A stretch of DNA of 56,679 nucleotides from an uncultured Candidatus Woesearchaeota archaeon (GCA_903915225.1 CAIWSB010000030.1:1-56679); one strand, 5' to 3'; shown: positions 1 to 25,491, counted from the first letter of the stretch. Program-made: numbers and translations. The notes: a model not told the origin generated them from the letters alone.

Positions 1-47
1 ATGCCCAGCATATCCTCAAGTGAAAGCGCTGTTGTAATGCTGTTCAT
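1..47 (-). CDS. Array paralog, N-terminal fragment only (gene runs off the left edge)
   Basis: Reverse complement of 1-47 reads MNSITTALSLEDMLG, the same N-terminal helix as 6908..7339 (MSSITTALTLEEMVG). The ATG at 47 overlaps the TGA of 44..523 as ATGA, with AGGAGG 8 nt upstream. Confidence 0.7.
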   Translation of the reverse strand, partial: MNSITTALSLEDMLG

Positions 48-523
48 TTTCCCATCCTCCTGTACCATGGCAGCCTCTCAACCTTTTTCACAGGGCTGAA
101 AGTTGAGTCCTTCTCCAGAACCTGCTTGAGCTCGTCAATATCCTCTGTTTTTTTCTTCTCCCTAATTCTTTTCTCTTCAGCCTCCCTCTTCTGCCTTGCC
201 GCCTCCTCTGCATCGCGTTTCTTGGTGTACACCCCATCGGCAATCTCAAAGATACCCTTGGCATCATCGCCACTTAGCTGAGCAACCTCACTTCTCCCAT
301 ACATTACAGATACATTATACCTGTTGATAATCGTATCAGGGAAAAACATATTGACTTTTTTTGAATGGTAGAGGGATACATTTACAGTGACTTTCTTATC
401 AGTCCCCTTTGGTGTATATGCCCCTGACAGGGTAACCGTCTTTCCATCTGATGTATTACTGCAACTCCAATCCTGCACACCCTGTGTCATCCCCAAAATC
501 TCTTCCAGACTAATGGCGTTCAT
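44..523 (-). CDS. Array paralog, single module, type A/F hybrid, unknown function
   Basis: 159 aa. Head 'SLEEILGMTQGVQDW' and 'GDDAKGIFEIA', an ER/K-rich spacer, tail 'RLPWYRRMGK'. Start moved from track ATG 544 to ATG 523, which gives an ATGA overlap with the upstream stop and AGGAGG 8-9 nt upstream. Confidence 0.8.
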   Translation of the reverse strand: MNAISLEEILGMTQGVQDWSCSNTSDGKTVTLSGAYTPKGTDKKVTVNVSLYHSKKVNMFFPDTIINRYNVSVMYGRSEVAQLSGDDAKGIFEIADGVYTKKRDAEEAARQKREAEEKRIREKKKTEDIDELKQVLEKDSTFSPVKKVERLPWYRRMGK

Positions 524-933
524 CTCCCCAACCTCCTGTACCACGGCAGCTTATCCGGCTTTTTGGCCAACGCGTCACGGAGTACGTCTACCTTCTGCTC
601 CAGCGCCTCCTCCTGCATCTTCCTTATTTTGTTTTCCCATTTAATCGTTATAGGATGGGCTTGGGTATAGCTGTCCTTTGCAATATTGTAAATCTTCTCT
701 GCCTCTTGGCTTGCATCTGAGACAATGGTTGCACCCTGGAAATCCACTGATACTGTATAGTATTCCCCGTACTTGTCCTTGAGCTCGGAAACTTTAATCT
801 TGACCTTTGAGAATGACCCCTCTGGATAAAACCCGCCGGAATATCTCGCGAGCTGGTCCAATGTATTTTTTTTCCTCCATCTCTTGACCTGCTTCGCAAT
901 CCCCAAGACCTCCTCGAGAGTGAGCTGCTTCAT
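520..933 (-). CDS. Array paralog, single module, type A, unknown function
   Basis: 137 aa. 'LTLEEVLGIAKQVKRW', 'EAEKIYNIA', tail 'KLPWYRRLGR'. Start moved from 954 to ATG 933. ATGA overlaps on both sides. Confidence 0.8.
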   Translation of the reverse strand: MKQLTLEEVLGIAKQVKRWRKKNTLDQLARYSGGFYPEGSFSKVKIKVSELKDKYGEYYTVSVDFQGATIVSDASQEAEKIYNIAKDSYTQAHPITIKWENKIRKMQEEALEQKVDVLRDALAKKPDKLPWYRRLGR

Positions 934-1370
934 CTCCCCATCCTCCTGTACCATGGGATCTGCTCAGGTTTTCCAGAGAGATACTCCCTCATTTCCTCAA
1001 TCTTGTTCTCTTTTCTCTCTTTGCGGCTTTTTTCTGCATATCTCAAACTTGCCTGCGCCATCTGAACCCCGCGGGGATGTAGCTTTTTGCAGCAGGCCTC
1101 GGCCTCATCAAAGAGCTTCTGGGCGCTTTCACCATCAAGGCTTGCCAATTCCTCATCTTCAAATTCATCAGTCCTGTAATATACAGAGCCCTTATAGTTA
1201 CCTTCGGAGTGGGTTTTATTTACTTTAATTTTGACACTGGGCCCAAAGAAACCTTTTGGTGAAAAATCCCCGGAGTACCCTGCCTCATCCGTGCGGAAGG
1301 AGTATTCCCATTTTCTGACCCTGTGGGCCATAGCCAAAATTTCCTCAAGTGTTAGTTCCCCCTCTTTCAT
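930..1370 (-). CDS. Array paralog, single module, type A, unknown function
   Basis: 146 aa. 'LTLEEILAMAHRVRKW', 'GESAQKLFDEA', tail 'QIPWYRRMGR'. Start moved from 1391 to ATG 1370. ATGA overlaps. Confidence 0.8.
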   Translation of the reverse strand: MKEGELTLEEILAMAHRVRKWEYSFRTDEAGYSGDFSPKGFFGPSVKIKVNKTHSEGNYKGSVYYRTDEFEDEELASLDGESAQKLFDEAEACCKKLHPRGVQMAQASLRYAEKSRKERKENKIEEMREYLSGKPEQIPWYRRMGR

Positions 1371-1771
1371 TCCCCCAGCCTCCTGTACCATGGAACTCGC
1401 CCTGCCTTGGCCTTCTCCCTGACCTGCTCAACAATTCTTAGGTGCTTCTCTTTAGCAGCCTCCTTTTTCTTTTTTTCATCCTCAATTCTTTTGAGCTCCT
1501 TTGGGCTTAGGTTCTTTTCAGCATATTCATAGATCTTTTTTGCATCAATACCTAAGAGCTCACCAACCTTCTTTTCCTTATAGTAAACCTCTCCATCGTA
1601 ATTGAGGTTTCCGGCGGACAGGGTCTCTCGCGCCCATACCCTTGCTTTGGAAAAAGGTCCAAAACTCAGGTGGCCATCATATACGGTGGAGCTGGAATAA
1701 TCGTTTCTTGTCCAATCTGTAATCTGATGTGCAATTTTCAGAATCTCCTCCAGATTTAGGTTGTCGCTCAT
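1367..1771 (-). CDS. Array paralog, single module, type A, unknown function
   Basis: 134 aa. 'LNLEEILKIAHQITDW', 'GIDAKKIYEYA', K/E-rich spacer, tail 'RVPWYRRLGE'. ATGA overlaps. Confidence 0.8.
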   Translation of the reverse strand: MSDNLNLEEILKIAHQITDWTRNDYSSSTVYDGHLSFGPFSKARVWARETLSAGNLNYDGEVYYKEKKVGELLGIDAKKIYEYAEKNLSPKELKRIEDEKKKKEAAKEKHLRIVEQVREKAKAGRVPWYRRLGE

Positions 1772-2184
1772 CTCCCCAGCCTCCTGTACAATGGGAGCTG
1801 CTCGGGTTTAGGGGCAATCCTCTCCCGTAGTTCCTCAAGGGCCTTAAGGCGGTCCTCCTCTTGAGCCCGTTTCTTCTCCTCTTTCCTCTGCTGTCTCCTG
1901 AGTTCTGATTTGGTTAAGCAACCATCTGCCAATTCATAAAGGGATTTTGCTTCCGCGCCATGAAGCTCACCAATCTTCTCATTCATATAGTACACATACC
2001 CCTCGTATCTAGAGTCAGAAAGGTGTTTATCTCCCCTTGAGTAGATTTTTGTCCCCTTTAAAGGCCCGGACTTGAAGCGCCCAACGTATTTGTTATAATT
2101 AGTATAGCTTAACCTCTTCCATCTCTTTACCTGCTTCGCCATATCCAGAATCTCTTCCAAAGTGAGGTCCGAGCTTTCAGTCAT
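1768..2184 (-). CDS. Array paralog, single module, type A, unknown function
   Basis: 138 aa. 'LTLEEILDMAKQVKRW', 'GAEAKSLYELA', tail 'QLPLYRRLGR'. 8-nt overlap (ATGACTGA) with the upstream gene, GAGGT 6 nt upstream of the ATG. Confidence 0.8.
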   Translation of the reverse strand: MTESSDLTLEEILDMAKQVKRWKRLSYTNYNKYVGRFKSGPLKGTKIYSRGDKHLSDSRYEGYVYYMNEKIGELHGAEAKSLYELADGCLTKSELRRQQRKEEKKRAQEEDRLKALEELRERIAPKPEQLPLYRRLGR

Positions 2185-2949: not shown

Positions 2950-3407
2950 TTCCCCAGCCTCCTATACCAAGGCAGCCTCTCAGGTTTAGGGGCAATCATC
3001 TCCTTTAGCTCCTGCACTTTCCTTATGCGCCTCTCCTCACCAATCTGCTTTGCCCTTTCGCGCCTCTCCTCAGCAGCCAGTCTATCCCTCTCCTTCTTCT
3101 CTAATATTTTTATGACCTTCTGGTTTAGCTTTGATTCGGCAATCTCATAAATCCCTTTCGCATCATCGCCACTCAAGTTTGCCACCTGCTCATTCTTGAA
3201 GTAAACATACCCATAATAGCTGGTTGTAACGGAATATTCGGTCTTCCTGACCTCAATTCTGACTTTGCTCAAACCCCCATTGATCCTATAAAACCCATCC
3301 AATTCCGAAGTTTCATTAGAGTAGGTGTTGATTTTCTTCCATGCCTTAACCTGCCTCGCCATCTGAAGTATCTCTTCCAGTGTGAGCTCGGGGCTAACGC
3401 TGTTCAT
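2946..3407 (-). CDS. Array paralog, single module, type A, unknown function
   Basis: 153 aa. 'LTLEEILQMARQVKAW', 'GDDAKGIYEIA', ER/K spacer, tail 'RLPWYRRLGK'. ATG 3407 preferred over 3416 because GAGGT then lies 9 nt upstream. 14-nt overlap with 3394..3762. Confidence 0.75.
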   Translation of the reverse strand: MNSVSPELTLEEILQMARQVKAWKKINTYSNETSELDGFYRINGGLSKVRIEVRKTEYSVTTSYYGYVYFKNEQVANLSGDDAKGIYEIAESKLNQKVIKILEKKERDRLAAEERRERAKQIGEERRIRKVQELKEMIAPKPERLPWYRRLGK

Positions 3408-4175: not shown

Positions 4176-4513
4176 CTCCCAATCCTCCGATACCAGGGCA
4201 AAGCCTCGCCTTTCCTGGGTGGCAGCAGCCGGAAGAACCTCTGCTGATGGTAAGCCTCATCAGCAATCTCGTAAAGGCTCTTGGCCTCTTCGCCGCTCGT
4301 GTGTTTAAGGTGCTTGTTCTTTGGCACCAGAGCGAACATATCTCCCAGGTTGCCATGGGAATTATAACGGTAGGAGTCAATGTAATAGCTCATTAAATAG
4401 CAATTGCGGGCGGCACATTTCCCGTAGTAAACCACCATAGTTTCAGTGTCTATTAACCGCTTCCAAACAGGCACTTCCCTGGCAACCTCCAGCATGTCCT
4501 CAACGCCACTCAT
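4172..4513 (-). CDS. Array paralog, single module, short type A, unknown function
   Basis: 113 aa. 'MLEVAREVPVW', 'GEEAKSLYEIA', 'QQRFFRLLPP', tail 'EALPWYRRIGR'. No ER/K spacer. ATGA overlaps. Confidence 0.8.
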   Translation of the reverse strand: MSGVEDMLEVAREVPVWKRLIDTETMVVYYGKCAARNCYLMSYYIDSYRYNSHGNLGDMFALVPKNKHLKHTSGEEAKSLYEIADEAYHQQRFFRLLPPRKGEALPWYRRIGR

Positions 4514-5364
4514 TTCTTATCACCCAGGACATGCCTCTTCAGGGCCTCAATCCTCTCAAGCCGCGCCTTCTCTTCCCGCTCTTTCGCGAGCTCTGCCATC
4601 CGAGGGCCGATATAATCAAACAACGCCTTTGCCTCATCACCAGTCAGGTAGCCCACCTTGTTCCCTTTATGGTTTATCCAGCAGCCATAAAATTCCACTT
4701 CCACCTTTGGCTCTTTGAAATTAATGTTGGTTTTATGCACCTCAATCTTGACTGTTCCAATCTCCTTGAGCTTGAGTTTGCCTGAGAAATAATTGATTTC
4801 CCTATTTGTATTATACTCTACAACTTCACCCCAGCTGTACTTAATTTTATGGTAGGAGGGCCCAACAATACGATTTGGCTTCCAGGCAACATCCTGCGTC
4901 ATTTTCATGACCTCTTCCAACGAGAAAGGCGTTGCCCTTGAATCCCCGCCCAATGCTGCCCTCATCTTCCCCACTTTTACAAGGGCTTCAGTGGTTAAAT
5001 CTGGGCTGCCCCTCACCCACCAATCAGCCATTGCCTGCTTAAGCTCCCCCGACCTCTTCATTTCACGCATTTCCTTCTCCTTGACTTCTTTGTCCATCTT
5101 CACTTTCACATAATCGAAAAGCTGCCTGGCCTCATCCCCCTTCACTTCTGCCATTTTTTCAGGACCATATGAAAGAGATGATATGTAATCAAACTCTCCA
5201 CCCTTATCAATACGTTCGATATCAAAACGCAATAACTTGAAAGACCAAAATCTCGGGTAGGTTTCACCAGTGTATCTCGTGGTGTTTTCAGATATAGTGT
5301 GCTGCCAACTTTCTATCTTATCAGCCATCTTCATCAAATCCTCAAGGCTCAGCGGGCTGCTCAT
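4510..5364 (-). CDS. Array paralog, double module, type D, unknown function
   Basis: 284 aa. Module 1 'LSLEDLMKMADKIESW...GDEARQLFDYV', module 2 'FSLEEVMKMTQDVAW...GDEAKALFDYI', tail 'HVLGDKK'. ATGA overlaps. Confidence 0.8.
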   Translation of the reverse strand: MSSPLSLEDLMKMADKIESWQHTISENTTRYTGETYPRFWSFKLLRFDIERIDKGGEFDYISSLSYGPEKMAEVKGDEARQLFDYVKVKMDKEVKEKEMREMKRSGELKQAMADWWVRGSPDLTTEALVKVGKMRAALGGDSRATPFSLEEVMKMTQDVAWKPNRIVGPSYHKIKYSWGEVVEYNTNREINYFSGKLKLKEIGTVKIEVHKTNINFKEPKVEVEFYGCWINHKGNKVGYLTGDEAKALFDYIGPRMAELAKEREEKARLERIEALKRHVLGDKK

Positions 5365-5729
5365 CTTTCGTACCTCTTCCTGTCTTTCCTTAGCAGCTCC
5401 AGGTCATCTTTGCCGTGTTCTATTTCCTTCCTTGTAAGATATTTTGAAAACCTGGCGGCGCGCTGGCGTGCGATTTCCATTACCTTGGCTGCATCATCGC
5501 CGTAAACCACGTCAACGAGATTCTTGAAATTGCCCACTGTGAGTCGGCAAGTCTCCTGGGCATCCTCTTTGTACCTTGCAACCTGAAGCCAGATAGAATG
5601 CCCCAGTTCAAGCCTAAGCTTCCCCCAATATACCTCTTCAGCCAAGAGGTAATCAGATGCGACAACATCCTGGTACCAGCGTGAGGATTCGGCCATTCTC
5701 ACCATCTCATCAAGGCTGAACCTGCTCAT
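5361..5729 (-). CDS. Array paralog, single module, type C, unknown function
   Basis: 122 aa. 'MSRFSLDEMVRMAESSRW', 'YGDDAAKVMEIA', tail 'RKRYER'. ATGA overlaps. Confidence 0.8.
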   Translation of the reverse strand: MSRFSLDEMVRMAESSRWYQDVVASDYLLAEEVYWGKLRLELGHSIWLQVARYKEDAQETCRLTVGNFKNLVDVVYGDDAAKVMEIARQRAARFSKYLTRKEIEHGKDDLELLRKDRKRYER

Positions 5730-7713: not shown

Positions 7714-8078
7714 TTCCCCATCCTCCTGTACCAAGGCAATGCCTCAACTTCAGATTCTTCCTTTGGCGGTAGCAGCTTGAAGAACCTCTGATTATCATAG
7801 ACCCCTTTGGCAATATCATATATCGATTTCGCATCGTCCCCTCTCGCAGATTTTATTACCTTATATCCCTGTGGTTCGAACACACCGCCAAAATAATCGG
7901 TGGTGGTGACACTCGTGTCTCTTTGCCTGTGCCTGAATTTCGCAATAAGCACAGAAGACCCGTGTTTGCGGCTTCGCCCATCGTAGAAGGTTAATGTCTT
8001 AGACCATCGGTGCCTTTTCCAAACAGGCACATCCTTGGCAATCTCAAGCATCTCCTCCAAAGTCATAGCACTACTCAT
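7710..8078 (-). CDS. Array paralog, single module, short type A, unknown function
   Basis: 122 aa. 'MTLEEMLEIAKDVPVW', 'GDDAKSIYDIA', 'NQRFFKLLPPKEESEVEALPWYRRMGK'. ATGA overlaps. Confidence 0.8.
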   Translation of the reverse strand: MSSAMTLEEMLEIAKDVPVWKRHRWSKTLTFYDGRSRKHGSSVLIAKFRHRQRDTSVTTTDYFGGVFEPQGYKVIKSARGDDAKSIYDIAKGVYDNQRFFKLLPPKEESEVEALPWYRRMGK

Positions 8079-8920
8079 TTTCCCCCATCCCCAAAAACAG
8101 CCCTCTTGAGCCCATCTGCCTTTGCCTGGCGCTGCCTTTCCTGCTTTTCAGCATCCAACTGGTCCTTGCGTCCTTGGACATATTGGTAAACCTTCTCTGC
8201 AGCATCCTCCCTAAGGCTCGCCACCTCTGCCCTCTTGAAGTAAACCCTGGCAGAGAATTTATTAGGAATAACATCGAATCCGTTAGAGTACCCTTCACAG
8301 ATTCCTGCAATTACCCGCACCATGTCCCGTGAGTTTGGTGTCTTGTGTTTCCCACTGTATTCAGTGACTGAATATTCACTCCAGAATCTATCATCATAAT
8401 ATTTTTTAGAAACCCTTTTCCATCCACCCATCTTTTGGGCTATCCCCAGGACCTCCTCAAGCGTAAGCGGGGTCTGCACAGAGGTTTTTTCTGGTTCGCA
8501 TCCCATTGTAGCCCGAAGCTCCTGCACCATCTTCAGGTTGATTGCTTCATGCCTCTTCTTGATGCTCCCTGAAACAACACCCTCAATTGAAGGCTCCTCA
8601 TCCCGAGCAGCCTCCTCAGCCTTTATCCTCTTTTTATTTACCTCCATCTGAATATAATCGAAAGGAAAAGAGGCAATCTCTCCCTTTAATTCAGCAACCT
8701 TCTCCTTGTCATAGGTCACTGAGACTGAATATTCAAACTTCCTTCCGCCATCCCCCTGCAGCTCTCTCCTTTCCACTTCAATATTCGCTTTCTTGGGTGA
8801 GAGGCGTTTGGGCCTGAATGCACCATTGTACCTGAGAATATTCCCCTCCTCTGACTTCCTCCAGCGCTTGACCCTGGCAGCCATTACAGTTATCTCCCCC
8901 ACATGGAAACTGGTGCTCAT
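8075..8920 (-). CDS. Array paralog, double module, type D, unknown function
   Basis: 281 aa. Module 1 'VGEITVMAARVKRW', module 2 'LTLEEVLGIAQKMGGW...EDAAEKVYQYV', tail 'AVFGDGGK'. ATGA overlaps. Confidence 0.8.
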   Translation of the reverse strand: MSTSFHVGEITVMAARVKRWRKSEEGNILRYNGAFRPKRLSPKKANIEVERRELQGDGGRKFEYSVSVTYDKEKVAELKGEIASFPFDYIQMEVNKKRIKAEEAARDEEPSIEGVVSGSIKKRHEAINLKMVQELRATMGCEPEKTSVQTPLTLEEVLGIAQKMGGWKRVSKKYYDDRFWSEYSVTEYSGKHKTPNSRDMVRVIAGICEGYSNGFDVIPNKFSARVYFKRAEVASLREDAAEKVYQYVQGRKDQLDAEKQERQRQAKADGLKRAVFGDGGK

Positions 8921-9762
8921 TTCTTCTCACCCAGGTATTGCCTCTTGAATGCCTCAAGCTGCTTCTGCTCTTCCTGCTCTCTTTTGGCCGCAATTTCCCT
9001 TTCCATTCTTGCCTGGGCCTCATGCCTCCTGCTCTCCTCATTTTCAGCAATGAGGTTGTGGGCCTTCTCAGCTGTGTAGACCATCCCGGTCCATATGTCC
9101 TTCCCCTTGTAAGAGATATTCGCCCTGAATTTCAAATCAAGAACAATGCTGCCATACTTTTTCCAGCTCCTTATTTTCACTTCATCCTTTAGGCCATCAA
9201 GCTGCAGCTTTCCCTCATATGATTCATAGAAAGGCCCTGCCCCATCACCACTAAAAACATCTGCAAAAGACCGGCGCTGTTTCTTCTTCCATTCTGGAAC
9301 CAGTTTAATCAGCCCCTCAACCTCATCCCAAGTTAGTTCGCTCAGTGCAGAGGCCTCCTGGCCCTTACCTAATGCAAACCTTATCTCCTGAACTCTTGTA
9401 AGGACTGGCATCTCCTTCCTTTGTTTCCTCTCCTCAATCGCCCTCTTCCGGGCCTCTTCCCTCTCTTTGTCAGCCCGAATCATGTCCTCGACCATCTTTC
9501 TGTTCTCCTCAGCTTTCTCATATGCAGCATCATACACTACCTTGCCATCCTTCCCTTCATAACTGGCAATAACCTTCTCTCCAAATTTCACATTTACCGC
9601 GTAGGTTTCATTATCCTTTTTCTGTAAGTGGAATTCCATAACCTTTTTCGACTCTGGAACCCCAAGTGCACCCTCCAGGCGGCCATCCTCCCAGTTAGTC
9701 CATTGCTCAATCTTCCGGGCCATCTCAGTAATCTGCTCCAAGGTGAATTCATTGGCGTTCAT
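8917..9762 (-). CDS. Array paralog, double module, type D, unknown function
   Basis: 281 aa. Module 1 'FTLEQITEMARKIEQW', module 2 'LTWDEVEGLIKLVPEW', ER/K-rich linkers, tail 'QYLGEKK'. ATGA overlaps. Confidence 0.8.
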   Translation of the reverse strand: MNANEFTLEQITEMARKIEQWTNWEDGRLEGALGVPESKKVMEFHLQKKDNETYAVNVKFGEKVIASYEGKDGKVVYDAAYEKAEENRKMVEDMIRADKEREEARKRAIEERKQRKEMPVLTRVQEIRFALGKGQEASALSELTWDEVEGLIKLVPEWKKKQRRSFADVFSGDGAGPFYESYEGKLQLDGLKDEVKIRSWKKYGSIVLDLKFRANISYKGKDIWTGMVYTAEKAHNLIAENEESRRHEAQARMEREIAAKREQEEQKQLEAFKRQYLGEKK

Positions 9763-10496
9763 TTTTTCTCACCCAGGATTCCCTTTTTCAGCCGCTCTAT
9801 CCTGGCCTCCTTTTCTTGTTCCTTTTTTAATTCAAAGAGGGTATCATATCTCATCGCCATCTCAGTCAATAGGCTCTGGGCTCGCCCACCCACTATCTCG
9901 AAAACTTTTTTCCCTGCGAACATCACGCTAACCTTCTCCAAATTGCCGCCCAAAATGGCAACTCTTTTATAGCCTGATATTACAACCGGTGAGTCAGCTG
10001 TGTCGAAGCTGCCGCGATATCTTGCAGCCGAACCTATATCCACATGGAAGTTTCGCTTATGCTCCTCGCAATCGCTCATCCCCCTAACCATTTTCAGCAC
10101 ATCATCGTAACTGAGAGGCTGAACAACTGAGCTCTCTGCAGGCGTGTTCCCGAGTGCAGCCCGCATCTCCAGCAGTGCCTTCTCTGCTTTGGAATTCTTG
10201 CATTGTTTCTTTCCGTATGCGATATTGAACGGCTCGGACACATTCTCGCCGTGGTAGTTGGCAATATCCTCATCATTATATGAGACTGTTACGCTGTATG
10301 TGTAACGTTGCCCGGCCTCGTCCTGAACAGCAAACTTGCCCACCTTCAGAACAAGTTTATCCAGCGAATACCATTTGGGCTTGACCTCCCCAACGTAGCT
10401 GGTTAGCTCAGCCCCGTTGTTCACATTATTCTTCCAGTGGGTAACCTTCCGGGCCATCTCGGTAATCTGCTCAAGTGTGAATCTGTTTGAGCTCAT
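9759..10496 (-). CDS. Array paralog, double module, type E, unknown function
   Basis: 245 aa. 'FTLEQITEMARKVTHW', 'KPKWYSLDKLVLKV', second module 'LSYDDVLKMVRGMSDC', tail 'GILGEKK' (GGTGAG = SD of the next gene). ATGA overlaps. Confidence 0.8.
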   Translation of the reverse strand: MSSNRFTLEQITEMARKVTHWKNNVNNGAELTSYVGEVKPKWYSLDKLVLKVGKFAVQDEAGQRYTYSVTVSYNDEDIANYHGENVSEPFNIAYGKKQCKNSKAEKALLEMRAALGNTPAESSVVQPLSYDDVLKMVRGMSDCEEHKRNFHVDIGSAARYRGSFDTADSPVVISGYKRVAILGGNLEKVSVMFAGKKVFEIVGGRAQSLLTEMAMRYDTLFELKKEQEKEARIERLKKGILGEKK

Positions 10497-11239
10497 TTCT
10501 CCTCACCAGCTGTCTTCTTGAAAAGCGCACCCTTCAGCTTCTCCAGCTTTTCTTTCTTTACCCTCTCTTGGCTCTCCCTTTTGAACTCATCACAGCGGGC
10601 CTTTGTGGCACCAATTATCTGGTCAATATCTCCATAATTGCGCTCCTCGAACACCCGCTCCCCATTGAACAGAACCCTTACAATCCAACAGTTCTCAGCG
10701 AAATTGACGCCCTGATAGATAATAACCCTTTGAGGTGAATTCTTCCCTTCGATATTCACACTGCCCTCAAATCTGTAGTCTACATGGCCAAATGTTTGAT
10801 ATGTGTATTTGCATTCTTCTACCCTGTTTATCAGCCCCAAAACCTCCTCCAGGGTGACCGGCTTAACAATTGAGCTCTGGTCAGGCTTGCTGGAAACCAG
10901 TGCCCTCAAATCCTGAACGGCCTTCTGCATTTTCGCTTCCTTATGCTGTTTCTTCTGGTAGGCGATCTGGAAAGGCTCAGATGCATCAAACTCAGCCACC
11001 TTTTCACCGCTGTAGGTAACTGTCACGCTGTATGAGCATATGGGTGGGCTATCGGCATCTGCACAACCGAAAACCGCCCTCCCCACCCTTAGCACCAGCT
11101 TCTCTGGGGAATACCATTTTGGCCTAATCTCACCAACATAGTGCAAAAAATAGGGATCATTATTGGCAGAATCCTTCCAGTGCCCAACCCTTCGTGCCAT
11201 CTCAGTGACCTGCTCCAGCGTGAATTCATTGCCGCTCAT
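10493..11239 (-). CDS. Array paralog, double module, type E, unknown function
   Basis: 248 aa. 'FTLEQVTEMARRVGHW', 'HYVGEIRPKWYS', 'VTLEEVLGLINRVEEC', 'FGHVDYRFEG', tail 'TAGEEK'. ATGA overlaps. Confidence 0.8.
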   Translation of the reverse strand: MSGNEFTLEQVTEMARRVGHWKDSANNDPYFLHYVGEIRPKWYSPEKLVLRVGRAVFGCADADSPPICSYSVTVTYSGEKVAEFDASEPFQIAYQKKQHKEAKMQKAVQDLRALVSSKPDQSSIVKPVTLEEVLGLINRVEECKYTYQTFGHVDYRFEGSVNIEGKNSPQRVIIYQGVNFAENCWIVRVLFNGERVFEERNYGDIDQIIGATKARCDEFKRESQERVKKEKLEKLKGALFKKTAGEEK

Positions 11240-11985
11240 GCCTTCTCGCCCCCGGACTTCTTAAAAAGCGCAGCCTTCATCTTCTCGAGCTTCTCTTTCC
11301 TAAGCTTATCTTGATCCTCTTTTCGGATATTCTGTCTACGAGCGCTTGCTTGACTAAATATCTCAGTCCACGCATCGTAATCACTTGATTCGAAAACCTT
11401 TTCACCATTAAACAGCACTTTTGCAGTGAACTCGTTTTTTATTGGATGGTAAATCTTGAAAAAAAGTACCTTGTAATTTTGTCCCTCGACTTTGATCCTG
11501 CCTTCAAATTTTACGTGCACACGGCCAAATTCTAAGGAGCAATCATAGCATTCATCGAGCTTACCAATCAAGCCCAAAATATCCTCAACAGTAACAGGCT
11601 TAACAACAGAGCTTTCCTCAGGTGTGCTGGACACAAGTGCCCTCAAATCCTGCATGGCCATCTGCATTTTCACTTCCTTCTGCTGCTTCTTCTGGTATGC
11701 AATCTCGAAAGGTTTAGACACATCATCACCGCCATAGGTGGCAACCTCTTCCCCGCCAAAATAGACTATGGCGCTGTACTTGTACTGTGGGGCGCAAGCA
11801 GAGTCCTCATTTGGCATAGTAATTCTGCCAACCCTTATCTCCAATTTATCCCCTGAGTACCATTTTGGCCTTATCTCGCCAACATAGTGCGTGAAGTAAG
11901 GCAAATTCTGGGCAGACTCCCTCCAGTGCCTCACCCTCCCTGCCATCTCAGTGACCTGCTCCAATGTGAAGGTGTTCTCGCTCAT
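11236..11985 (-). CDS. Array paralog, double module, type E, unknown function
   Basis: 249 aa. 'FTLEQVTEMAGRVRHW', 'HYVGEIRPKWYS', 'VTVEDILGLIGKLDEC', tail 'SGGEKA'. ATGA overlaps. Confidence 0.8.
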   Translation of the reverse strand: MSENTFTLEQVTEMAGRVRHWRESAQNLPYFTHYVGEIRPKWYSGDKLEIRVGRITMPNEDSACAPQYKYSAIVYFGGEEVATYGGDDVSKPFEIAYQKKQQKEVKMQMAMQDLRALVSSTPEESSVVKPVTVEDILGLIGKLDECYDCSLEFGRVHVKFEGRIKVEGQNYKVLFFKIYHPIKNEFTAKVLFNGEKVFESSDYDAWTEIFSQASARRQNIRKEDQDKLRKEKLEKMKAALFKKSGGEKA

Positions 11986-12737
11986 TTCTTTTCATCCCCT
12001 GGCTTCTTAAAAAGCACACCCTTCATTTTCTCAAGCTTCTCTTTCAAAGCCCTCTCTTGGTTCTCTTTTTTAACCTCATCAATGCGAGAATATGTGGCAC
12101 CAACTATACGGTCATCTTCTCCCACATTGCGTGTCTCGAATACCTTTTCCCCGTTGAAGAGTACCCTCACAATCCAATTATGTTCTTTGAAATTGCGAAC
12201 TCTGTAAACAAGAACCTTTTGAGGTTCATTCTTCCCTTCAACATTCACTCTGCCCTCAAATCTATAGTCCACATGGCCAAATGTTAGCTCAGTGTCTTTG
12301 CAATCTTCAACTTTTTTGATTAGCCCCAAAACGTCCTCAAGTGTGACTGGCTTTACAACAGAACTTTGCTCAGGTGTGTTAGACAGCACAGTCCTTATAT
12401 CCTGCAGGGCCATCTGCATTTTCATTTCCTTGCGCTGTTTCTTCTGGTAAGCAGTTTGGAAAGGAGCTGAAACATTTTCTCCATTGTATTCAGAAACTAT
12501 TATATCACCATAGGTGACTGTTGCGCTATAATTTCGCTGCGGTTCACACGTGGAATCTTTATTTGGCACAATAATCCTCCCCACAGTTATCTCCAATTTC
12601 TCAGAGGAGTACCATTTCGGCCTTATCTCGCCAACATAGTGCGTAGAGTAGGGCTCATTATTGGGCCAGCCCTTCCAGTGGCTAACCCTCCCGGCCATCT
12701 CAGTAACCTGCTCTAGGGTGAAGGAGTTCTCTCTCAT
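11982..12737 (-). CDS. Array paralog, double module, type E, unknown function
   Basis: 251 aa. 'FTLEQVTEMAGRVSHW', 'HYVGEIRPKWYS', 'VTLEDVLGLIKKVEDC', 'FGHVDYRFEG', tail 'PGDEKK'. ATGA overlaps. Confidence 0.8.
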   Translation of the reverse strand: MRENSFTLEQVTEMAGRVSHWKGWPNNEPYSTHYVGEIRPKWYSSEKLEITVGRIIVPNKDSTCEPQRNYSATVTYGDIIVSEYNGENVSAPFQTAYQKKQRKEMKMQMALQDIRTVLSNTPEQSSVVKPVTLEDVLGLIKKVEDCKDTELTFGHVDYRFEGRVNVEGKNEPQKVLVYRVRNFKEHNWIVRVLFNGEKVFETRNVGEDDRIVGATYSRIDEVKKENQERALKEKLEKMKGVLFKKPGDEKK

Positions 12738-13501
12738 TTCTTCTCACCCACCGTCTTCCTTACAATGGCCTTCTTGATACCCTCAAGCCTTGCTTCTACC
12801 CCTTTATTGTACCTCTCGCTTACAATTCCGCCAATGCGATTATCCATCAACTTTATTAGTTCCTGTGCAGGTTCACCCTCTATCTCGAATACTTTTTCTC
12901 CCTTGAAGAACCCCCTCACAAATAGTAAACTTCCCCCTATGTAATCATATTTCTTGGCGTAGCCGATTATTTTCACAGATGAGTTAGGCTGGTTTGTATT
13001 GAACTTGCCGTGATATTTATCGATGCCACCTTGATGAAGTGTCATGCCCATGCGGAACACCTTGCATTTACTCATTTTATTAATCATGCCAGCAACTTCG
13101 TCATATGTTAGAGGTGGAACAACAGAACTTTCCTGCGGCGTTCCTGTCAGCGTTTCTCTTAATTCCTGCAACGCCGTTTGGATTTTATCCTGCTTGATTT
13201 TTTTATTTCGGTAGGCGACTGCAAAAGGTCCAGAGGCACCTTCCCCTTGGTAGTCTGCGATTTTTTTGTCTGAATAGGTGACTGTTGCGCTGTATGTATA
13301 GCGTGGTAGAGTGGTTGGTTCTGTCACTTCAGCAAGAGCTCGGCCCACTTTTATGACCAATTTATCAAGTGAATACCATTTTGGGCTCATCATCCCAAAG
13401 TATGTTAAAGAGTTGGGCTCATTGCTGGTTGAATCCTTCCATAGCCTAACCTTTTTTGCCATTTCCGTAATCTGCTCCAGCGTGAAGGTGTTCTCGCTCA
13501 T
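12734..13501 (-). CDS. Array paralog, double module, type E, unknown function
   Basis: 255 aa. 'FTLEQITEMAKKVRLW', 'SPKWYSLDKLVIKV', 'LTYDEVAGMINKMSKC', tail 'TVGEKK'. ATGA overlaps. Confidence 0.8.
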   Translation of the reverse strand: MSENTFTLEQITEMAKKVRLWKDSTSNEPNSLTYFGMMSPKWYSLDKLVIKVGRALAEVTEPTTLPRYTYSATVTYSDKKIADYQGEGASGPFAVAYRNKKIKQDKIQTALQELRETLTGTPQESSVVPPLTYDEVAGMINKMSKCKVFRMGMTLHQGGIDKYHGKFNTNQPNSSVKIIGYAKKYDYIGGSLLFVRGFFKGEKVFEIEGEPAQELIKLMDNRIGGIVSERYNKGVEARLEGIKKAIVRKTVGEKK

Positions 13502-14259
13502 TTCTTCTCCACCTCCTTTCTCCTGAGAATGGCGCTCTTCATGCTCTCCAGCTTCTCTCTCTGGGACCTCTCCTTTTTGTCGTTCTTGAGGGCAACTATG
13601 CGTTTATCCGCCGCATCCAATATCTCCTCTTTTGTATCCCCATCCTCTGTTGCGTAAACCACATTCCCTCTGACGTAAATTGTCAAGATTATTTTTCTAT
13701 TAAATTCCTGTTTTGAGGCATATCTCTGGCGAATGGCCAGCTCCAGGTCCGGACTCTGCCCCCCTATCTTGATTCTCCCATTGTACTTAACGAAAGAATA
13801 GCCCGCACTACAAGTGCATTCATCAAATCTCTTAATTACACTCAGCACCTCATCAAGCGTGAGCTGCTTTACAATTGAGCTTTCCTGAGGCGTATCTGAA
13901 ATCAATCCACGCAGTTCCAGCAAGACCTTTTGTTTTTCTGATTCCACCTGCAGGTTACTCTTGTTTGCCACATCGAAAGGCTGGTTCGCATCTTGCCCTT
14001 TATAGTTTGCAATAATCTTGTCAGAATAGGATACAATGGCTGAGTAGGTTGACACAAGCGAATCTCCATTATGGCGGGTGTATCTCGCCACATTAAGCAC
14101 AAGCACGTCCAAGGAATACCATTTGGGCTTGATGTATCCAGTGTAGGCTGTTTTCTGCCCATCTGGGTAGATAACCCCTGAATCCATCCCGTCATTCCAA
14201 GTCCTGACCCTCTTGGCCATCTCTGTGATATCCTCCAGGGTGAATGCGTTCTCGCTCAT
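13498..14259 (-). CDS. Array paralog, double module, type E, unknown function
   Basis: 253 aa. 'FTLEDITEMAKRVRTW', 'KPKWYSLDVLVLNV', 'LTLDEVLSVIKRFDEC', tail 'KEVEKK'. ATGA overlaps. Confidence 0.8.
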   Translation of the reverse strand: MSENAFTLEDITEMAKRVRTWNDGMDSGVIYPDGQKTAYTGYIKPKWYSLDVLVLNVARYTRHNGDSLVSTYSAIVSYSDKIIANYKGQDANQPFDVANKSNLQVESEKQKVLLELRGLISDTPQESSIVKQLTLDEVLSVIKRFDECTCSAGYSFVKYNGRIKIGGQSPDLELAIRQRYASKQEFNRKIILTIYVRGNVVYATEDGDTKEEILDAADKRIVALKNDKKERSQREKLESMKSAILRRKEVEKK

Positions 14260-14975
14260 TTCTTCTCACCCTTGGATCTTATCCTCTCTTTCATCCTCTC
14301 GATGTGTTTTGACATCTCTGTCGTGCCCATCTCCTTCCTAATTTCTTTGAAGCGCTTGTCCATTTGCTCAATAAGACTGTCAGCAGGGAGTAGGTCGAAA
14401 AGTTTTTCGCCCTTATACTTCAAAGTAAAGTAAGTGAAGCCATCAACCGGTAAGTCATTCTTGCCAGCAATAATCTTAGCCCCTGGGATGCTTAATCTGC
14501 CTTTATAGGTGTAAGTTACTGCTTCGCCAGTGCTATGGCAATACCTGCTGCAGTCATCCATCTTTTTGATTATGCTTAGAACCTCCTCCAGCGTCAATGG
14601 TTTAACTATAGAGATATCCTGAAGAGGTTCCCCAAGCGCAGCTCGAACCTCCTGTATCCCCTTGTACTTTTTGGCCTCATGCGGGCGCTTTTTCGCGTAG
14701 GCGATTTCAAAGAGCTTTGATACATCTGGACCTGAGAATTCTGCCACCTTCTCCCCCAAAAAGGATACAGCCACTTTATAGGAGAATTTTTGCTCCGAAC
14801 TTTCTTCGAGGATTTTCGTGACATTTATTTCGAATTCTTTTAGTGACCACAATCTGGGACTGACTTTCCCACTGTAGCCGTAAGATCTGGGCTCGCCAAA
14901 GTAGCTTTCATTCCAGTATCCAACCTTCTGGGCCATCCCCATTATCTGTTCCAGGGTGAATGCGTTCTTGCTCAT
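14256..14975 (-). CDS. Array paralog, double module, type E, unknown function
   Basis: 239 aa. 'FTLEQIMGMAQKVGYW', 'LTLEEVLSIIKKMDDC', tail 'SKGEKK'. ATGA overlaps. Confidence 0.8.
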   Translation of the reverse strand: MSKNAFTLEQIMGMAQKVGYWNESYFGEPRSYGYSGKVSPRLWSLKEFEINVTKILEESSEQKFSYKVAVSFLGEKVAEFSGPDVSKLFEIAYAKKRPHEAKKYKGIQEVRAALGEPLQDISIVKPLTLEEVLSIIKKMDDCSRYCHSTGEAVTYTYKGRLSIPGAKIIAGKNDLPVDGFTYFTLKYKGEKLFDLLPADSLIEQMDKRFKEIRKEMGTTEMSKHIERMKERIRSKGEKK

Positions 14976-15709
14976 TTCTTCTCACCCGCAATCTTCTTCG
15001 AGAAGGCCCTCTTTATCTTCTCAATCCTCTCTTTCTTTTCCCTCTCTTGGATAACCCTATCTAAATCCCTCACGCGGTCATTTAGCTCTTGCAATATTTT
15101 GTGATATTTGAATTCAGTACCCTCTAAAACCGTTTCCCCCTTGTAATCCATTTTTAAGAACCATTTCCCATTGTTTTTATCGTAGTATCTTGAAATGAGA
15201 ATCCGCGAATCCTTCCCATCAAAATTAATTCTCCCGTCATATCTTGATGCAGTTCTATTCCTTTCGCTGTATTTGCACGAATCGAACCTCTTAATCAAGC
15301 CCACAACCTCGTCGCTACTGAGCGGGCTGACAGATGAGCCCTCCTGCGGCGTGTTTGAAATGAGTGTCCTCAATTCCGCCAGAGCCTTTTGTCTACTTAC
15401 TTCCTTAGATTCAATTTTCTTATTGGCAATATCAAATATATCAGAAACCTCATCACCCTGGTAATAGCCAATTGTCTCTTTGCCATATGTGACCCTCGCT
15501 GTGTACTTGTAATTCTGGCCGGACTGGGAATTCGCATCCTGGTAAGTCTGCCTGTCCACCTTAATGGCTAATCTATCAAGTGAATACCAATTTGGCTTAA
15601 TCCTCCCTGTAAAGCTGATATAGCCTAGCTTACTGTCGTCTTCTTCCTTCCAGCCCCTAACCCCCTTGGCCATTTCAGTAATCTGCTCCAGCGTGAAGGC
15701 ATCGCTCAT
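14972..15709 (-). CDS. Array paralog, double module, type E, unknown function
   Basis: 245 aa. 'FTLEQITEMAKGVRGW', 'KPNWYSLDRLAIKV', 'LSSDEVVGLIKRFDSC', tail 'IAGEKK'. ATGA overlaps. Confidence 0.8.
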   Translation of the reverse strand: MSDAFTLEQITEMAKGVRGWKEEDDSKLGYISFTGRIKPNWYSLDRLAIKVDRQTYQDANSQSGQNYKYTARVTYGKETIGYYQGDEVSDIFDIANKKIESKEVSRQKALAELRTLISNTPQEGSSVSPLSSDEVVGLIKRFDSCKYSERNRTASRYDGRINFDGKDSRILISRYYDKNNGKWFLKMDYKGETVLEGTEFKYHKILQELNDRVRDLDRVIQEREKKERIEKIKRAFSKKIAGEKK

Positions 15710-16164: not shown

Positions 16165-16610
16165 CCCAAAAACCTCCTGTACCAGTGCCTTTTTGGGTTT
16201 AAGCTGCACAAAGTTGAGTCGCCACTGAGAACCTGCTTCACCTGCTGGATGGTTGCCTGCTCTGCCTCCTGCTTTTTCCTGAACTCAGCATTGGCCGCCT
16301 CAGCTTTCTTCAATAAGATTTTCTTCTCAGCAATCTCATAGACCCTTTTTGCCTGCTTTTCATTTAGCTCAACTGCTCCAGTATCGTCTAATTTCAATGA
16401 ACCCAGATATTGATAGCTAGAATAATCACCAAACATTCCGTAATGTTTAGTTTCAATACCTGTTGCGCTCACATGCATGCTTTTGTCAGAGCCATTTGGC
16501 GTAAACTGGCCAGAGTATGTCTTAGTGTCAAAATGATTGGTATCCTCTTTCCACTCACTAACCCCCTTGGCAATTGTTACAATCTCCTCAAGGCGCAGGT
16601 TGCTGCTCAT
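16161..16610 (-). CDS. Array paralog, single module, type F, unknown function
   Basis: 149 aa. 'LRLEEIVTIAKGVSEW', 'EKQAKRVYEIA', tail 'RHWYRRFLG'. ATGA overlaps. Confidence 0.8.
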   Translation of the reverse strand: MSSNLRLEEIVTIAKGVSEWKEDTNHFDTKTYSGQFTPNGSDKSMHVSATGIETKHYGMFGDYSSYQYLGSLKLDDTGAVELNEKQAKRVYEIAEKKILLKKAEAANAEFRKKQEAEQATIQQVKQVLSGDSTLCSLNPKRHWYRRFLG

Positions 16611-17068
16611 TTCAGAAACCTCCTGTAAAATGGGCGCCTCTCTTTTGCTCCGAGGGTTGAATCCCCGCTTAGGGCCTGCTTCAGCTCCCCGATTGCTTCC
16701 GACTTCTTCTCTGCAACTTTCCTTAACATTTCCGCTTCCTCTCTTTTCTTGCGGTTGGCTTCCTCATCGATTTTATGTTGGATGGCTTTCTCAGCTGCAA
16801 AGTACACTTTTTTTGCCTGCCTTGCTGTTAGCTCTACGATTGTGGTGTCCCCGAATGACAATGTGGCCACATAATCGTTTCTATAGCCTGACCAGGTGGC
16901 TGGGGCCCAAAACCTAGTCACTGATGTGTTCACAACCACGGCCTTATCAGAGCCATTTGGCGTATAGGTTCCTGAGTAAGAGTACCCGCAGTCAATGGGT
17001 TTTTTAGTCCACTCTGAAATCCCATTTGCAATTGTTACAATCTCCTCAAGGCGCAGGTTGCTGCTCAT
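16607..17068 (-). CDS. Array paralog, single module, type F, unknown function
   Basis: 153 aa. 'LRLEEIVTIANGISEW', 'ARQAKKVYFAA', tail 'RPFYRRFLK'. Start moved from 17116 to ATG 17068 (ATGA overlap). Confidence 0.8.
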   Translation of the reverse strand: MSSNLRLEEIVTIANGISEWTKKPIDCGYSYSGTYTPNGSDKAVVVNTSVTRFWAPATWSGYRNDYVATLSFGDTTIVELTARQAKKVYFAAEKAIQHKIDEEANRKKREEAEMLRKVAEKKSEAIGELKQALSGDSTLGAKERRPFYRRFLK

Positions 17069-17517
17069 CCCAAAAACCTCCTGTAGAACGGCCGGCTCTC
17101 CTTGGCCAGAGTGCACAGGGTTGAATCCCCCTTGAGTGCCTCTTTCACCTGGAGAACTGCAGCTGCCTTTTCCTCATCAGCCTTTCTTCGTACTGCCTCC
17201 ACCTTCTCATCTTCCCTTTGTAGGTAGGCCTTCCTTACAGCCTGGTAGACCCTTTTAGCTTGCCCAGAAGTCAGCGATGTGAGCTCAGTCTCCCCCAATT
17301 TCAGTGAGGCATGATAAATTAATATTCTCCTGTCTGGGAGAAATTCATTGCGCTTCGTGCGAACAGAAATTGTTGCACTCACAACTATGCTCTTGTCAGA
17401 GCCATTTGGTGTATAGGCCCCTTTATAGAACGTATCATAGTCTTTCTTTTCGCGTTTCCACTCCGAAACGCCCTTGACAATTGTTACAATCTCCTCAAGG
17501 CGCAGGTTGTTGCTCAT
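17065..17517 (-). CDS. Array paralog, single module, type F, unknown function
   Basis: 150 aa. 'LRLEEIVTIVKGVSEW', 'SGQAKRVYQAV', tail 'RPFYRRFLG'. ATGA overlaps. Confidence 0.8.
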   Translation of the reverse strand: MSNNLRLEEIVTIVKGVSEWKREKKDYDTFYKGAYTPNGSDKSIVVSATISVRTKRNEFLPDRRILIYHASLKLGETELTSLTSGQAKRVYQAVRKAYLQREDEKVEAVRRKADEEKAAAVLQVKEALKGDSTLCTLAKESRPFYRRFLG

Positions 17518-17939
17518 CCCAAAAACCTCCTGTAGAATGGCCGGCTCTCCCTTGCTCCAATGGTAGAATCCCCTTTGAGTGCCTCTTTTACCTCGAGGAC
17601 AGCCTTCTTTCGCTCGGCATCCGCCCTTTCCTCCTCTTTTTGCAAGTACGCTCTTTTGACAGTCTCATAGACGCGTTTTGCCTGCCCTGGAGTCAGCGAT
17701 GTGAGCTTAGTTTCCCCCAATTTTAATGAGGCTTGATAAGAGTGAATTGTCCTATTAGGTAATAATTCGTTAATCTTAGTGCGAACCGCCATTGATGCGC
17801 TCACAAGTATACTTTTATTAGAGCCATTAGGAGTGTAAACCCCGGTGTAGGCAATATCATATTCTCTCTTATCGCGTTTCCACTCAGGAACGCCCTTGAC
17901 AATTGTTACAATCTCCTCAAGCGAAAGTTTTGTTGCCAT
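17514..17939 (-). CDS. Array paralog, single module, type F, unknown function
   Basis: 141 aa. 'LSLEEIVTIVKGVPEW', 'PGQAKRVYETV', tail 'RPFYRRFLG'. 4-nt gap to the upstream gene, AGGT 9 nt upstream of the ATG. Confidence 0.8.
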   Translation of the reverse strand: MATKLSLEEIVTIVKGVPEWKRDKREYDIAYTGVYTPNGSNKSILVSASMAVRTKINELLPNRTIHSYQASLKLGETKLTSLTPGQAKRVYETVKRAYLQKEEERADAERKKAVLEVKEALKGDSTIGARESRPFYRRFLG

Positions 17940-17943
17940 GGTC

Positions 17944-18312
17944 TTAACCTATATGGTATTCTAGGGCGTTTTTACCATCCCTAGCCCTAACTTGATAATT
18001 CTCATCCAATCTCTTTTGTGTGGTGGCCTGGATTTTCCCATAAAGCTTCTCAATCTCTGCACCCTCAAAATGGCATAATACCCCCGAGGAATCCGAGTAC
18101 ATCAGTGTGAATTCGCTTCCAGGTTTCAGAATCTCAAATCTGTATTTGTCTCCCGCATAAAAGATTTCACGGTAGTATCCAATAATGTTGTCACCTTCGT
18201 TATTGAGGATGACTTGCCAATCATTTACCTTTTCTGAAAAAGCAACCAAATCCTCAAGCTTTACACCGGTTCCTTTAGCATCCTCGCTCACAAATCTGAA
18301 TAAGTCTGTCAT
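17944..18312 (-). CDS. Array paralog, single module, type G, unknown function
   Basis: 122 aa. 'LEDLVAFSEKVNDWQVILNNEGDNIIGY', 'GAEIEKLYGKI'. No ER/K spacer and no WYRR tail. AGGTGAT 7 nt upstream of the ATG; this SD contains the TGA stop of the upstream gene. Confidence 0.75.
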   Translation of the reverse strand: MTDLFRFVSEDAKGTGVKLEDLVAFSEKVNDWQVILNNEGDNIIGYYREIFYAGDKYRFEILKPGSEFTLMYSDSSGVLCHFEGAEIEKLYGKIQATTQKRLDENYQVRARDGKNALEYHIG

Positions 18313-18319
18313 TTTTCAA

Positions 18320-18703
18320 TCACCTTAAAAAGCGCATCCCACGCTTGGCCCTCTCGGCCCTCTCTTTGAATTGTTCATCAATGAGCTTTTGGTGACAGCT
18401 GTTAATCCCCTCATAAAGCCCCGCAACCATTTCCCCCTCAAAATAGGATAAAATCCCTTGAGAGTCAGAGAGCGTCAATGTGAAGGCTGCTCCTGGCTTT
18501 CGTATCTCTAAATGGTAAACCTTGGGATTATAGGTAGAGGAGGAATTTCTGAAGTCCCTGCTAAACCCTATGATGTTGTCACCTTCATCGTTTAGGATAT
18601 GCTGCCAACCACTTTCTGTTATCTTGACCAGATTCTCCAACTCATCCAGTGAAGGACCGCATCCCTTAAAATCCGGGCTGACAAGCTTGTAATTGTCGCT
18701 CAT
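18320..18703 (-). CDS. Array paralog, single module, type G, unknown function
   Basis: 127 aa. 'LDELENLVKITESGWQHILNDEGDNIIGF', 'GEMVAGLYEGI'. ATGA overlap upstream. Confidence 0.75.
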   Translation of the reverse strand: MSDNYKLVSPDFKGCGPSLDELENLVKITESGWQHILNDEGDNIIGFSRDFRNSSSTYNPKVYHLEIRKPGAAFTLTLSDSQGILSYFEGEMVAGLYEGINSCHQKLIDEQFKERAERAKRGMRFLR

Positions 18704-19194: not shown

Positions 19195-19199
19195 TCCAC

Positions 19200-19295
19200 T
19201 CACCAGTTTACAGCTACATCTGTAGCAATAATTATCATTAAATTCCCCCAAATTACCTAACTGTATAGTGGTAACTCCTTGTTTAAAAAGGTTTT
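19200..19295 (-). promoter_or_regulatory. Candidate promoter region of the array
   Basis: On the minus strand there are AT-rich TATA-like boxes: 'CTTTTTAAAC' (plus-strand coordinates 19282-19289) and 'AATTTAATGATAATTATT' (19227-19243). This is the only sizeable non-coding stretch upstream of the first array gene. The exact box cannot be decided from sequence. Confidence 0.35.
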
Positions 19296-19397
19296 GGCTG
19301 TTTTCTCTCGAGAAAGCCAAAAAACATGCCCAAACCGAGCCAAAGGAGGAAAAAGGAGTATAGAGGGTTTTTTTTGTCGTCAATATACCTTTTAAAG

Positions 19398-23367: not shown

Positions 23368-23397
23368 GTTCAACACCCCTAATAATTATATTGAAAT

Positions 23398-25490: not shown

Positions 25491-25491
25491 A

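Follow-up and report, generated by a model that had tools for sequence, protein, structure and literature searches.

A tandem array of ATGA-joined paralogous genes in a probable DPANN archaeon, with gene tails that double as Shine-Dalgarno sites

The minus strand of a contig from an uncultured Candidatus Woesearchaeota archaeon (GCA_903915225.1, CAIWSB010000030.1:1-56679) carries, from 44 to 19194, an unbroken chain of 37 co-directional paralogous genes encoding proteins of 113-284 amino acids, as rebuilt from open reading frames (ORFs). We refer to the 56,679 nucleotides (nt) analysed as the window, which appears to be the whole contig. At 35 of the 37 array junctions there is no intergenic space, and 11 of the array genes are two-domain fusions. 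The first gene (18700..19194, minus strand) likely starts at ATG 19194 (MNRQKTEWDF...), with GGTGA at 19203-19199 in front of it; the extension of its mechanically called ORF to TTG 19407 is probably non-coding. About 90 nt upstream of this start codon lies a TATA-box-like motif, TTTTAAAC (19282..19289, minus strand), a candidate archaeal promoter of the array. At the other end a 38th gene starts at ATG 47-45 (1..47, minus strand; MNSITTALSLEDMLG...) and runs past the contig end, so the array continues outside the window; the junction at 44-47, where this gene begins MNSITTALSLEDML..., is counted as the 37th. Its full protein of 128 amino acids (P0018) was recovered from other contigs. The gene list of one contig carrying the same proteins, a_LZE8B4, has about five further genes downstream of the array part and, past those, LemA and GIDE genes on the opposite strand. 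Counted with this continuation, the array totals about 42 genes.

Alignments of the array proteins reveal a shared N-terminal helix (L-[ST]-L-E-E-[IV]-L), an invariant Trp, a beta-sheet and a helix with the pattern G-x-x-A-K-x-[IVL]-Y-E-I-A. Several subfamilies can be distinguished among the paralogues, which are 19-43% identical at the protein level. An AlphaFold2 model of one member (predicted local distance difference test score, pLDDT, 92.8) consists of one helix, five strands, a helix of ~58 residues and a short terminal helix. In orthologous fragments from other samples the ratio of nonsynonymous to synonymous substitution (dN/dS) is 0.26-0.35, at dS values of 0.39-0.56, and this ratio indicates that these are real protein-coding genes that evolve fairly fast.

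The genes are joined with little variation. Thirty-three of the 37 junctions are 4-nt ATGA overlaps, and the remaining four are 8-nt and 14-nt overlaps and 4-nt and 7-nt gaps, in exact agreement with an earlier note made on this DNA. All junction distances lie between -14 and +7 nt (33 at -4 and one each at -8, -14, +4 and +7), and 36 of the 37 fall inside the range of -8 to +10 nt that has been treated as predicting termination-reinitiation (Huber et al. 2023, PMC10666635), at distances expected of coupled pairs. The note's statement that the stop is always TGA does not hold: TGA is used at 35 of 37, with TAG at 3394 and TAA at 17944. It had also moved seven starts to an internal ATG, and this reassignment is justified (mechanical ORF starts 544, 954, 1391, 7360, 7734, 16209 and 17116). 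The upstream in-frame ATG, TTG or GTG codons of these seven genes are by-products of Pro-Trp codons (CCA, CCT or CCG followed by TGG) and lack a Shine-Dalgarno (SD) site of their own, while the internal ATGs align with the N-termini of all paralogues and are also the starts given in a public gene call for another contig. Use of the upstream MVQE... starts was rejected on these four grounds. Where the ATG shares bases with the TGA stop, as in every ATGA-coupled gene, codon 2 can begin only with A, and dual coding thus constrains both proteins at each junction. Between 44 and 18703 the residue after Met is Ser in 21 genes, Asn in 9, Lys in 3, Thr in 2, Arg in 1 and Ala in 1, the Ala standing at a non-ATGA junction.

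It had further been claimed that the last codons of each gene spell the ribosome-binding site of the next. With a canonical anti-SD sequence assumed, this was borne out at 36 of 37 junctions, where the predicted duplex has an energy of -7 kcal/mol or below; 27 of 37 are at -8.4 kcal/mol or below, the value from which an SD has been classed as strong (Huber et al. 2019, PMC6728339). For comparison, 17-mers across the array average -4.2 kcal/mol. In the non-array part of the window ATGA occurs at 6 of ~18 same-strand junctions, and the SD matches are weaker (-2.6 to -10.5 kcal/mol).

The SD is written into tails of several kinds, all on the minus strand and given here as peptides up to the stop codon. 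Fourteen junctions between 44 and 7730 follow the tail P-[WFL]-x-R-R-[LMI]-G-[KRE] (stops at 7710, 7336, 6908, 6498, 5726, 4172, 3759, 2946, 2533, 1768, 1367, 930, 520 and 44), with GGAGG at -13 to -9 from the next ATG and ATGA at 14 of 14. Five junctions between 15706 and 17530 follow the tail [FW]YRRF[LF][GK] (stops at 17514, 17065, 16607, 16161 and 15706); each reads TAC AGG AGG TTT and then ATGA, at -11.2 kcal/mol. GGAGG stands 8 nt before the ATG in all 19 RR tails. The RR pair had been described as an invariant AGGAGG placed 8-9 nt before the next ATG; the invariance applies to the GGAGG core, since AGGAGG is found in 17 of 19 and CGGAGG in 2 of 19, and the spacing is exactly 8 nt. One codon string quoted for this tail, TGG TAC AGG AGG CTG GGG AAA TGA, proved to be a composite, as the WYRRLGK gene (2946) has TAT, not TAC. 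Ten junctions after two-domain genes (8075..14990; stops at 14972, 14256, 13498, 12734, 11982, 11236, 10493, 9759, 8917 and 8075) have tails ending in G-E-K-K (GGT GAG AAG AAA TGA), in which GGTGA or AAGGAGGTG forms the SD, with ATGA at 10 of 10. A two-domain gene of 284 amino acids ends in HVLGDKK (CTG GGT GAT AAG AAA TGA, 4510..4530), with GGTGA as the SD and ATGA. The RKRYER tail (5361..5381), whose codons AGG AAG AGG TAC GAA AGA TGA are present as previously quoted, carries GAGGT followed by ATGA, at -7.2 kcal/mol; the HRERYGK tail at 6136 is of the same type (-7.7 kcal/mol). Three unrelated tail peptides are thus different registers of one SD, namely AGGAGG read as RR, GGTGAG read as G-E and (G)AGGTAC read as R-Y, and at one junction there is a further register in which the stop codon itself lies inside the SD (AAGGTGA).

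That last register belongs to the 7-nt gap (18313..18319, within a feature at 18313..18322, minus strand), where AAGGTGA takes in the upstream TGA stop (TTA AGG TGA, tail LR). The 14-nt overlap (3394..3407, minus strand) is formed by an upstream TAG stop at 3396-3394 and a downstream ATG at 3407, with GAGGT 9 nt upstream; the start at 3407 is identical in a public gene call. At the 8-nt overlap, ATGACTGA (2177..2184, minus strand), GAGGT lies 6 nt upstream. The 4-nt gap (17940..17943, minus strand), which follows the TAA stop at 17946-17944, is the sole junction without a convincing SD (-3.6 kcal/mol). The ATGA junction between the first and second genes (18700..18703, minus strand) follows the tail ARGAEKK, with GGGGAGCTGAG upstream and an energy of -9.3 kcal/mol.

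A tail that encodes an SD could owe its codons to the peptide it specifies, and five lines of evidence, the several SD registers among them, bear on this. In the first, the last seven codons were resampled in 500 trials with the peptide kept and with the array's own codon usage. The outcome favours nucleotide-level selection: the observed mean was -10.1 kcal/mol against -6.4 +/- 0.48 for the resampled tails, and 0 of 500 trials reached the observed value. The second is codon choice at individual positions. The RR codons (R185/R186) are AGG in 36 of 38 cases and CGG in 2 of 38, with AGG accounting for 48% of Arg codons in gene bodies. Likewise, Gly in the GEKK-type tails is GGT in 7 of 8, as opposed to 17% in gene bodies. 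The conserved columns G41, A108, V20, L10 and P182 each use 4-5 synonymous codons, which indicates that synonymous sites are saturated except in the SD core. Within the 19 RR tails, GGAGG (-13 to -9), T at -7 and ATGA are invariant in 19 of 19, and positions -8 and -6 to -1 vary. The same core is kept between orthologues. Fragments L004, L009 and L016, 80-86% identical in nucleotides, keep GGAGG at every orthologous junction; the Pro codon has another third base in 5 of 6 comparisons, and CGG has replaced AGG once. On these codon patterns, the nucleotides of the SD core are shown to be under purifying selection beyond the needs of the peptide. The dual-coding interpretation of the tails is supported.

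Junctions might also be alike with no selection at all, if the array were young or had been homogenised by gene conversion or unequal crossing-over. Recombination readily affects tandem arrays, the junction together with the N-terminal LTLEEIL region is the most conserved stretch of DNA, and some neighbours are close copies, for example those with the tails at 17514 and 17065. Yet protein identity among the paralogues is only 19-43%, each conserved residue is spelt with 4-5 synonymous codons, conservation inside the tail is position-specific, unlike what conversion would leave, and orthologues at dS of ~0.4-0.55 keep the SD core. This explanation was rejected on the position-specific conservation of the tail, the divergence of the paralogues and the retention of the core in orthologues, and we regard it as very improbable.

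A side observation concerns the other conserved end of the genes. The N-terminal L-E-E is usually encoded by CTG GAG GAG, which places a second SD-like sequence, GGAGGAG, ~20-35 nt inside most genes between 44 and 18703. The Glu codons of this motif are GAG in 32 of 36 cases as compared with 64% in gene bodies; this bias may come from the peptide alone or from a nucleotide-level role as well.

The array and its relatives contain natural controls in which the junction has been lost or altered. No WYRR, RR or aromatic-Tyr motif is present at the internal domain boundary of the 11 two-domain fusions (absent in 11 of 11); these boundaries read ...TP(E/Q)ESS(V/I)VKP and then (L/V)TLEEVL. Tail, stop and start have all disappeared from the middle of these fused proteins. 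In a related fragment, L003, one gene does not overlap its neighbour: the next start lies 15 nt downstream and has its own AAGGTGA in the spacer, and the tail is P-F-Y-K-K-I-G-K-M-L-T-T-R-W, with AAG AAA where AGG AGG would be. Distant homologues (E-values 1e-7 to 1e-4) have no such tail, and on each of three contigs examined the homologue stands alone, in an archaeal neighbourhood. Together the fusions, L003 and the distant homologues indicate that RR tracks the presence of an overlapping downstream start.

These controls bear on the alternative that P-[WF]-Y-R-R-L-G-K is purely a functional C-terminal peptide, for docking or targeting, and that its resemblance to an SD comes from the preferred AGG codon in a purine-rich gene. 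AGG is indeed the commonest Arg codon in the array genes (48%), Pro and aromatic residues outside the SD are conserved, the tail is modelled as a short helix (pLDDT 71-81), and L003 keeps P-F-Y-K-K-I-G-K, with basic residues in place of RR. On the other side, AGG at 36 of 38 positions against the 48% expected has a binomial probability of ~7e-10, a figure that ignores the relatedness of the genes. None of the 500 synonymous resamples matched the observed SD strength, the unrelated tails GEKK, RYGK and LR encode SDs too, and the motif is missing at the 11 internal boundaries and in the distant homologues. The peptide-only reading was rejected on the AGG bias, the resampling, the unrelated SD tails and these absences, and it seems to us hardly credible.

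Some selection on the peptide nevertheless accompanies that on the nucleotides. The earlier note had allowed for it at P-[WF]-Y, and the codons agree: 18 of 19 tails retain the Pro that precedes the SD, encoded by any of its four codons, with a free third base (A in 8, T in 5, G in 3, C in 2). Since the Pro and aromatic residues lie outside the SD and are conserved with free synonymous sites, and since L003 has basic residues in place of RR, some peptide-level constraint is indicated. In the subfamilies that have them, the Pro and the hydrophobic or aromatic residues after it are selected separately, as amino acids. The conserved Pro and aromatics 6-8 codons before the stop also invite the speculation that the P-W-Y... 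tail might slow termination from within the ribosome, as a nascent-peptide arrest motif of the TnaC/SecM kind.

The most likely mechanism, in our view and by analogy with published work, is translational coupling by termination-reinitiation. At each junction 20-25 nt have a triple role, as the C-terminal tail of the upstream protein, as SD and as the next ATG over the TGA. The SD, which is GGAGG in RR tails, GGTGA in GEKK tails and GAGGT in RY tails and lies 6-9 nt ahead of the next ATG, is complementary to the canonical 3′ end of 16S rRNA. A ribosome ending at the TGA would be held by this SD/anti-SD pairing and would then re-initiate at the overlapping ATG. In such a relay along one long transcript, the proteins would be made in more or less constant ratios. 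The array would have grown through repeated tandem duplication of one gene together with its junction, to give at least 38 paralogues of an uncharacterised family on one strand. We consider this explanation, taken as a whole, to be probable.

By published criteria (PMC6728339, PMC10666635) the geometry of the junctions does predict coupling. Among overlapping gene pairs from Haloferax volcanii and Escherichia coli, 13 of 14 were strictly coupled, removal of the SD usually lowered reinitiation, and the contribution of the SD was variable and usually positive (Huber et al. 2019, PMC6728339). Reinitiation collapsed at a distance of ~20 nt, and -4 is the commonest distance across 1,695 species (PMC10666635). 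Two counts are neutral as to a single transcript: sites resembling sigma-70 promoters occur in the array at chance level (28 against 23 +/- 6), and the archaeal TATA-like sequence TTTAWAWA was not found on the array coding strand, where only ~3 occurrences would be expected.

The main rival of coupling is independent initiation, in which the genes share long transcripts, each SD recruits ribosomes de novo, and the ATGA overlaps are the outcome of compaction and of inheritance through duplication. The SDs are strong enough for a de novo start, the neighbouring operon at 23398-33435 has equally strong SDs with gaps of 1-21 nt, the predicted structure leaves the SDs unhidden, and bioBF of E. coli was found to start de novo despite its overlap (Huber et al. 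2019, PMC6728339). Against this stand the strict coupling of 13 of the 14 overlapping pairs tested in that work (PMC6728339), the retention of the ATGA register at 33 of 37 junctions despite saturated synonymous sites, and a mini-ORF in fragment L003 that keeps SD, start and ATGA as if the chain itself were preserved. Situated between two family genes, this mini-ORF (455-506; GCA_041643175.1, JBGGHA010100412.1) is 11 codons long (MAEDISGREKK), opens with a start preceded by a separate AAGGTGA SD and closes in an ATGA shared with the gene that follows. A family member appears to have been deleted here, leaving just the sequence that holds the chain together. We judge independent initiation to be unlikely, though it is a reading to be taken seriously.

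Several further points weigh against termination-reinitiation along the whole chain. The canonical 16S tail, ...AUCACCUCCU-3′, was taken as the anti-SD, the 16S gene of the host lying outside the window; no rRNA or tRNA was found within it. The junctions are paralogous copies and not independent events, so that p-values of the binomial type overstate the evidence. Runs of at least five T are not avoided on the coding strand (22 against ~19 expected), and these, including one run of seven at 11465, could act as archaeal terminators. Predicted SD accessibility is 0.37 against a background of 0.43 (p = 0.07), and a value this near background gives no sign of structure that would block independent initiation; the strong SDs could equally serve de novo initiation at every gene. 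A single ~19-kb transcript and the dependence of each gene on the one before it, which the earlier note took to be implied, are, finally, plausible inferences that go beyond what sequence can show.

Coupling by termination-reinitiation also admits a more ambitious form, in which a relay of ribosomes over ~42 genes in a small-genome DPANN archaeon would fix the proportions of dozens of paralogous subunits of one heteromeric assembly, each protein contributing a small beta-sheet domain and a helix of ~60 residues. The tail would then act as SD, as stop/start overlap and as a Pro-aromatic peptide that aids ribosome retention or subunit assembly. We think this quite improbable.

Stop/start overlaps with an SD in the upstream coding sequence are familiar from trpE-trpD and trpB-trpA of E. 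coli, where they are thought to serve equimolar synthesis; those are single pairs of non-homologous genes for enzyme subunits. Tandem arrays of small paralogous or immunity-like genes are likewise known, with many genes on one strand, fast evolution and restriction to one lineage. The resemblance to them is one of layout only, and this family has no Pfam, phage or plasmid match. With the published cases of ATGA/TGATG termination-reinitiation (PMC6728339, PMC10666635) the array shares co-directional genes, 4-nt ATGA overlaps and distances that permit reinitiation. It also shares strong SDs at the overlaps, several leading genes in the window having none, which resembles the situation in some archaeal groups. 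The published systems, however, are pairs or short operons of different genes, often for subunits of one complex, whereas in this array a run of at least 37 junctions joins paralogues from a single family by what would be the same coupling, and the SD-bearing tail lies inside the duplicated unit and so has become a family-wide "peptide motif". As far as Eyre-Walker (1996) is presented in PMC8410138, constraint on codons and stop codons at the 3′ ends of closely spaced genes has been recognised before, with a gene end that doubles as the next ribosome-binding site, biases synonymous codons and favours TGA at 4-nt overlaps. In that account the effect is a weak genome-wide trend, while here RR is fixed in 19 paralogues and can be read from an alignment. 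An ATGA overlap with the SD in the upstream gene is an established phenomenon of known mechanism; the array is an unusually large and clean example of it, and what is unusual is its scale and the protein family.

That family left few traces in the collections searched. None of ten array proteins reached a curated cut-off in a Pfam scan, and Foldseek with the one modelled member returned no credible neighbour (best E-values 0.11 in PDB and 0.013 in BFVD, TM-scores below 0.4). A tblastn search of phage and plasmid collections gave no match to the family, and a profile search of 1.84 billion representative proteins gave only 43 matches, mostly from this locus. Relatives are limited to short fragments from a few metagenomes (L003, L004, L009, L010 and L016). 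The junction DNA pattern had one true relative in JGI metagenomes, L016, and no match in viral contigs; an alignment of the two-domain, GEKK-tailed subfamily had no match in JGI metagenomes or viral contigs. In one genome each for 185,579 species the junction pattern was matched twice, both times in unrelated genes, with ~4 matches expected by chance by our estimate. In one of these (L001, 5810-5833; Lachnospiraceae metagenome-assembled genome, JAUNGD010000030.1), an unrelated protein of 337 amino acids ends in ...EEWYRRIGK, with TGGTACAGGAGG...ATGA over the next gene. The same tail peptide has there arisen from an SD plus an overlap in an unrelated protein, and the number of matches fits chance. 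An undescribed and extremely rare family has here, in a single lineage, been massively amplified.

Two housekeeping proteins of the window have their best named relatives in Woesearchaeota, Nanoarchaeota and other DPANN archaea (62-66% identity). These matches and the archaeal neighbourhoods of the distant homologues make a DPANN archaeon the probable host. Beside the array no gene for a toxin, for secretion or for defence was identified, the PADLOC and PHROGs libraries not having been searched. Upstream of the array, an operon on the minus strand (22726-33435) encodes large proteins without a family match except for two AAA-type ATPase domains (29213-30985 and 25492-27792); sequence searches of the PDB with two proteins of this operon gave one weak AAA-domain match and none for the other. 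Most of its genes have strong SDs (GGAGG, GAGGTGA, GGTGGTGA), and other genes of the window, at 34-56 kb, mostly have weak SDs or none. A cluster of the pseudaminic-acid type at 46271-52356 comprises a PseB-like dehydratase, a DegT aminotransferase, a NeuB synthase, a cytidylyltransferase, a Pse-associated methylase and a B12-binding radical SAM protein; several of its genes are ATGA-joined too, with weaker SD matches.

Two intergenic copies of a GC-rich element of ~92 nt lie at 19395-19490 and 34678-34769, both on the minus strand. A long stem, GCAGCAACA...TGTTGCTGC, closes the element, within which there is conserved sequence; a 20-nt probe matches both copies at no more than 1 mismatch, with 0 matches expected by chance, and no match was found in Rfam. 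The sequence TTTATAAAA (19510-19502), which resembles an archaeal TATA box, precedes the first copy. The element may be a small structured RNA or a miniature mobile element. On the plus strand of 1-19400, opposite the array, there are many mechanical ORFs of 60-180 amino acids, which the strong purine bias of the coding strand (A 32%, G 29%, GC skew ~-0.25) has probably produced as artefacts.

The array offers a natural example of how a "conserved peptide motif" can largely be an RNA signal, and anyone who builds motifs or profiles for this family would otherwise take RR as a functional feature of the protein. Its junction variants stand on a common background (ATGA, -8, -14, +4 and +7, three SD registers and 11 fused controls) and form a useful series for the rules of termination-reinitiation in archaea. 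If the host has a genome of ~1 Mb, a size usual for DPANN archaea, an array of more than 19 kb would take up a notable share of it. The family itself merits attention apart from its junctions.

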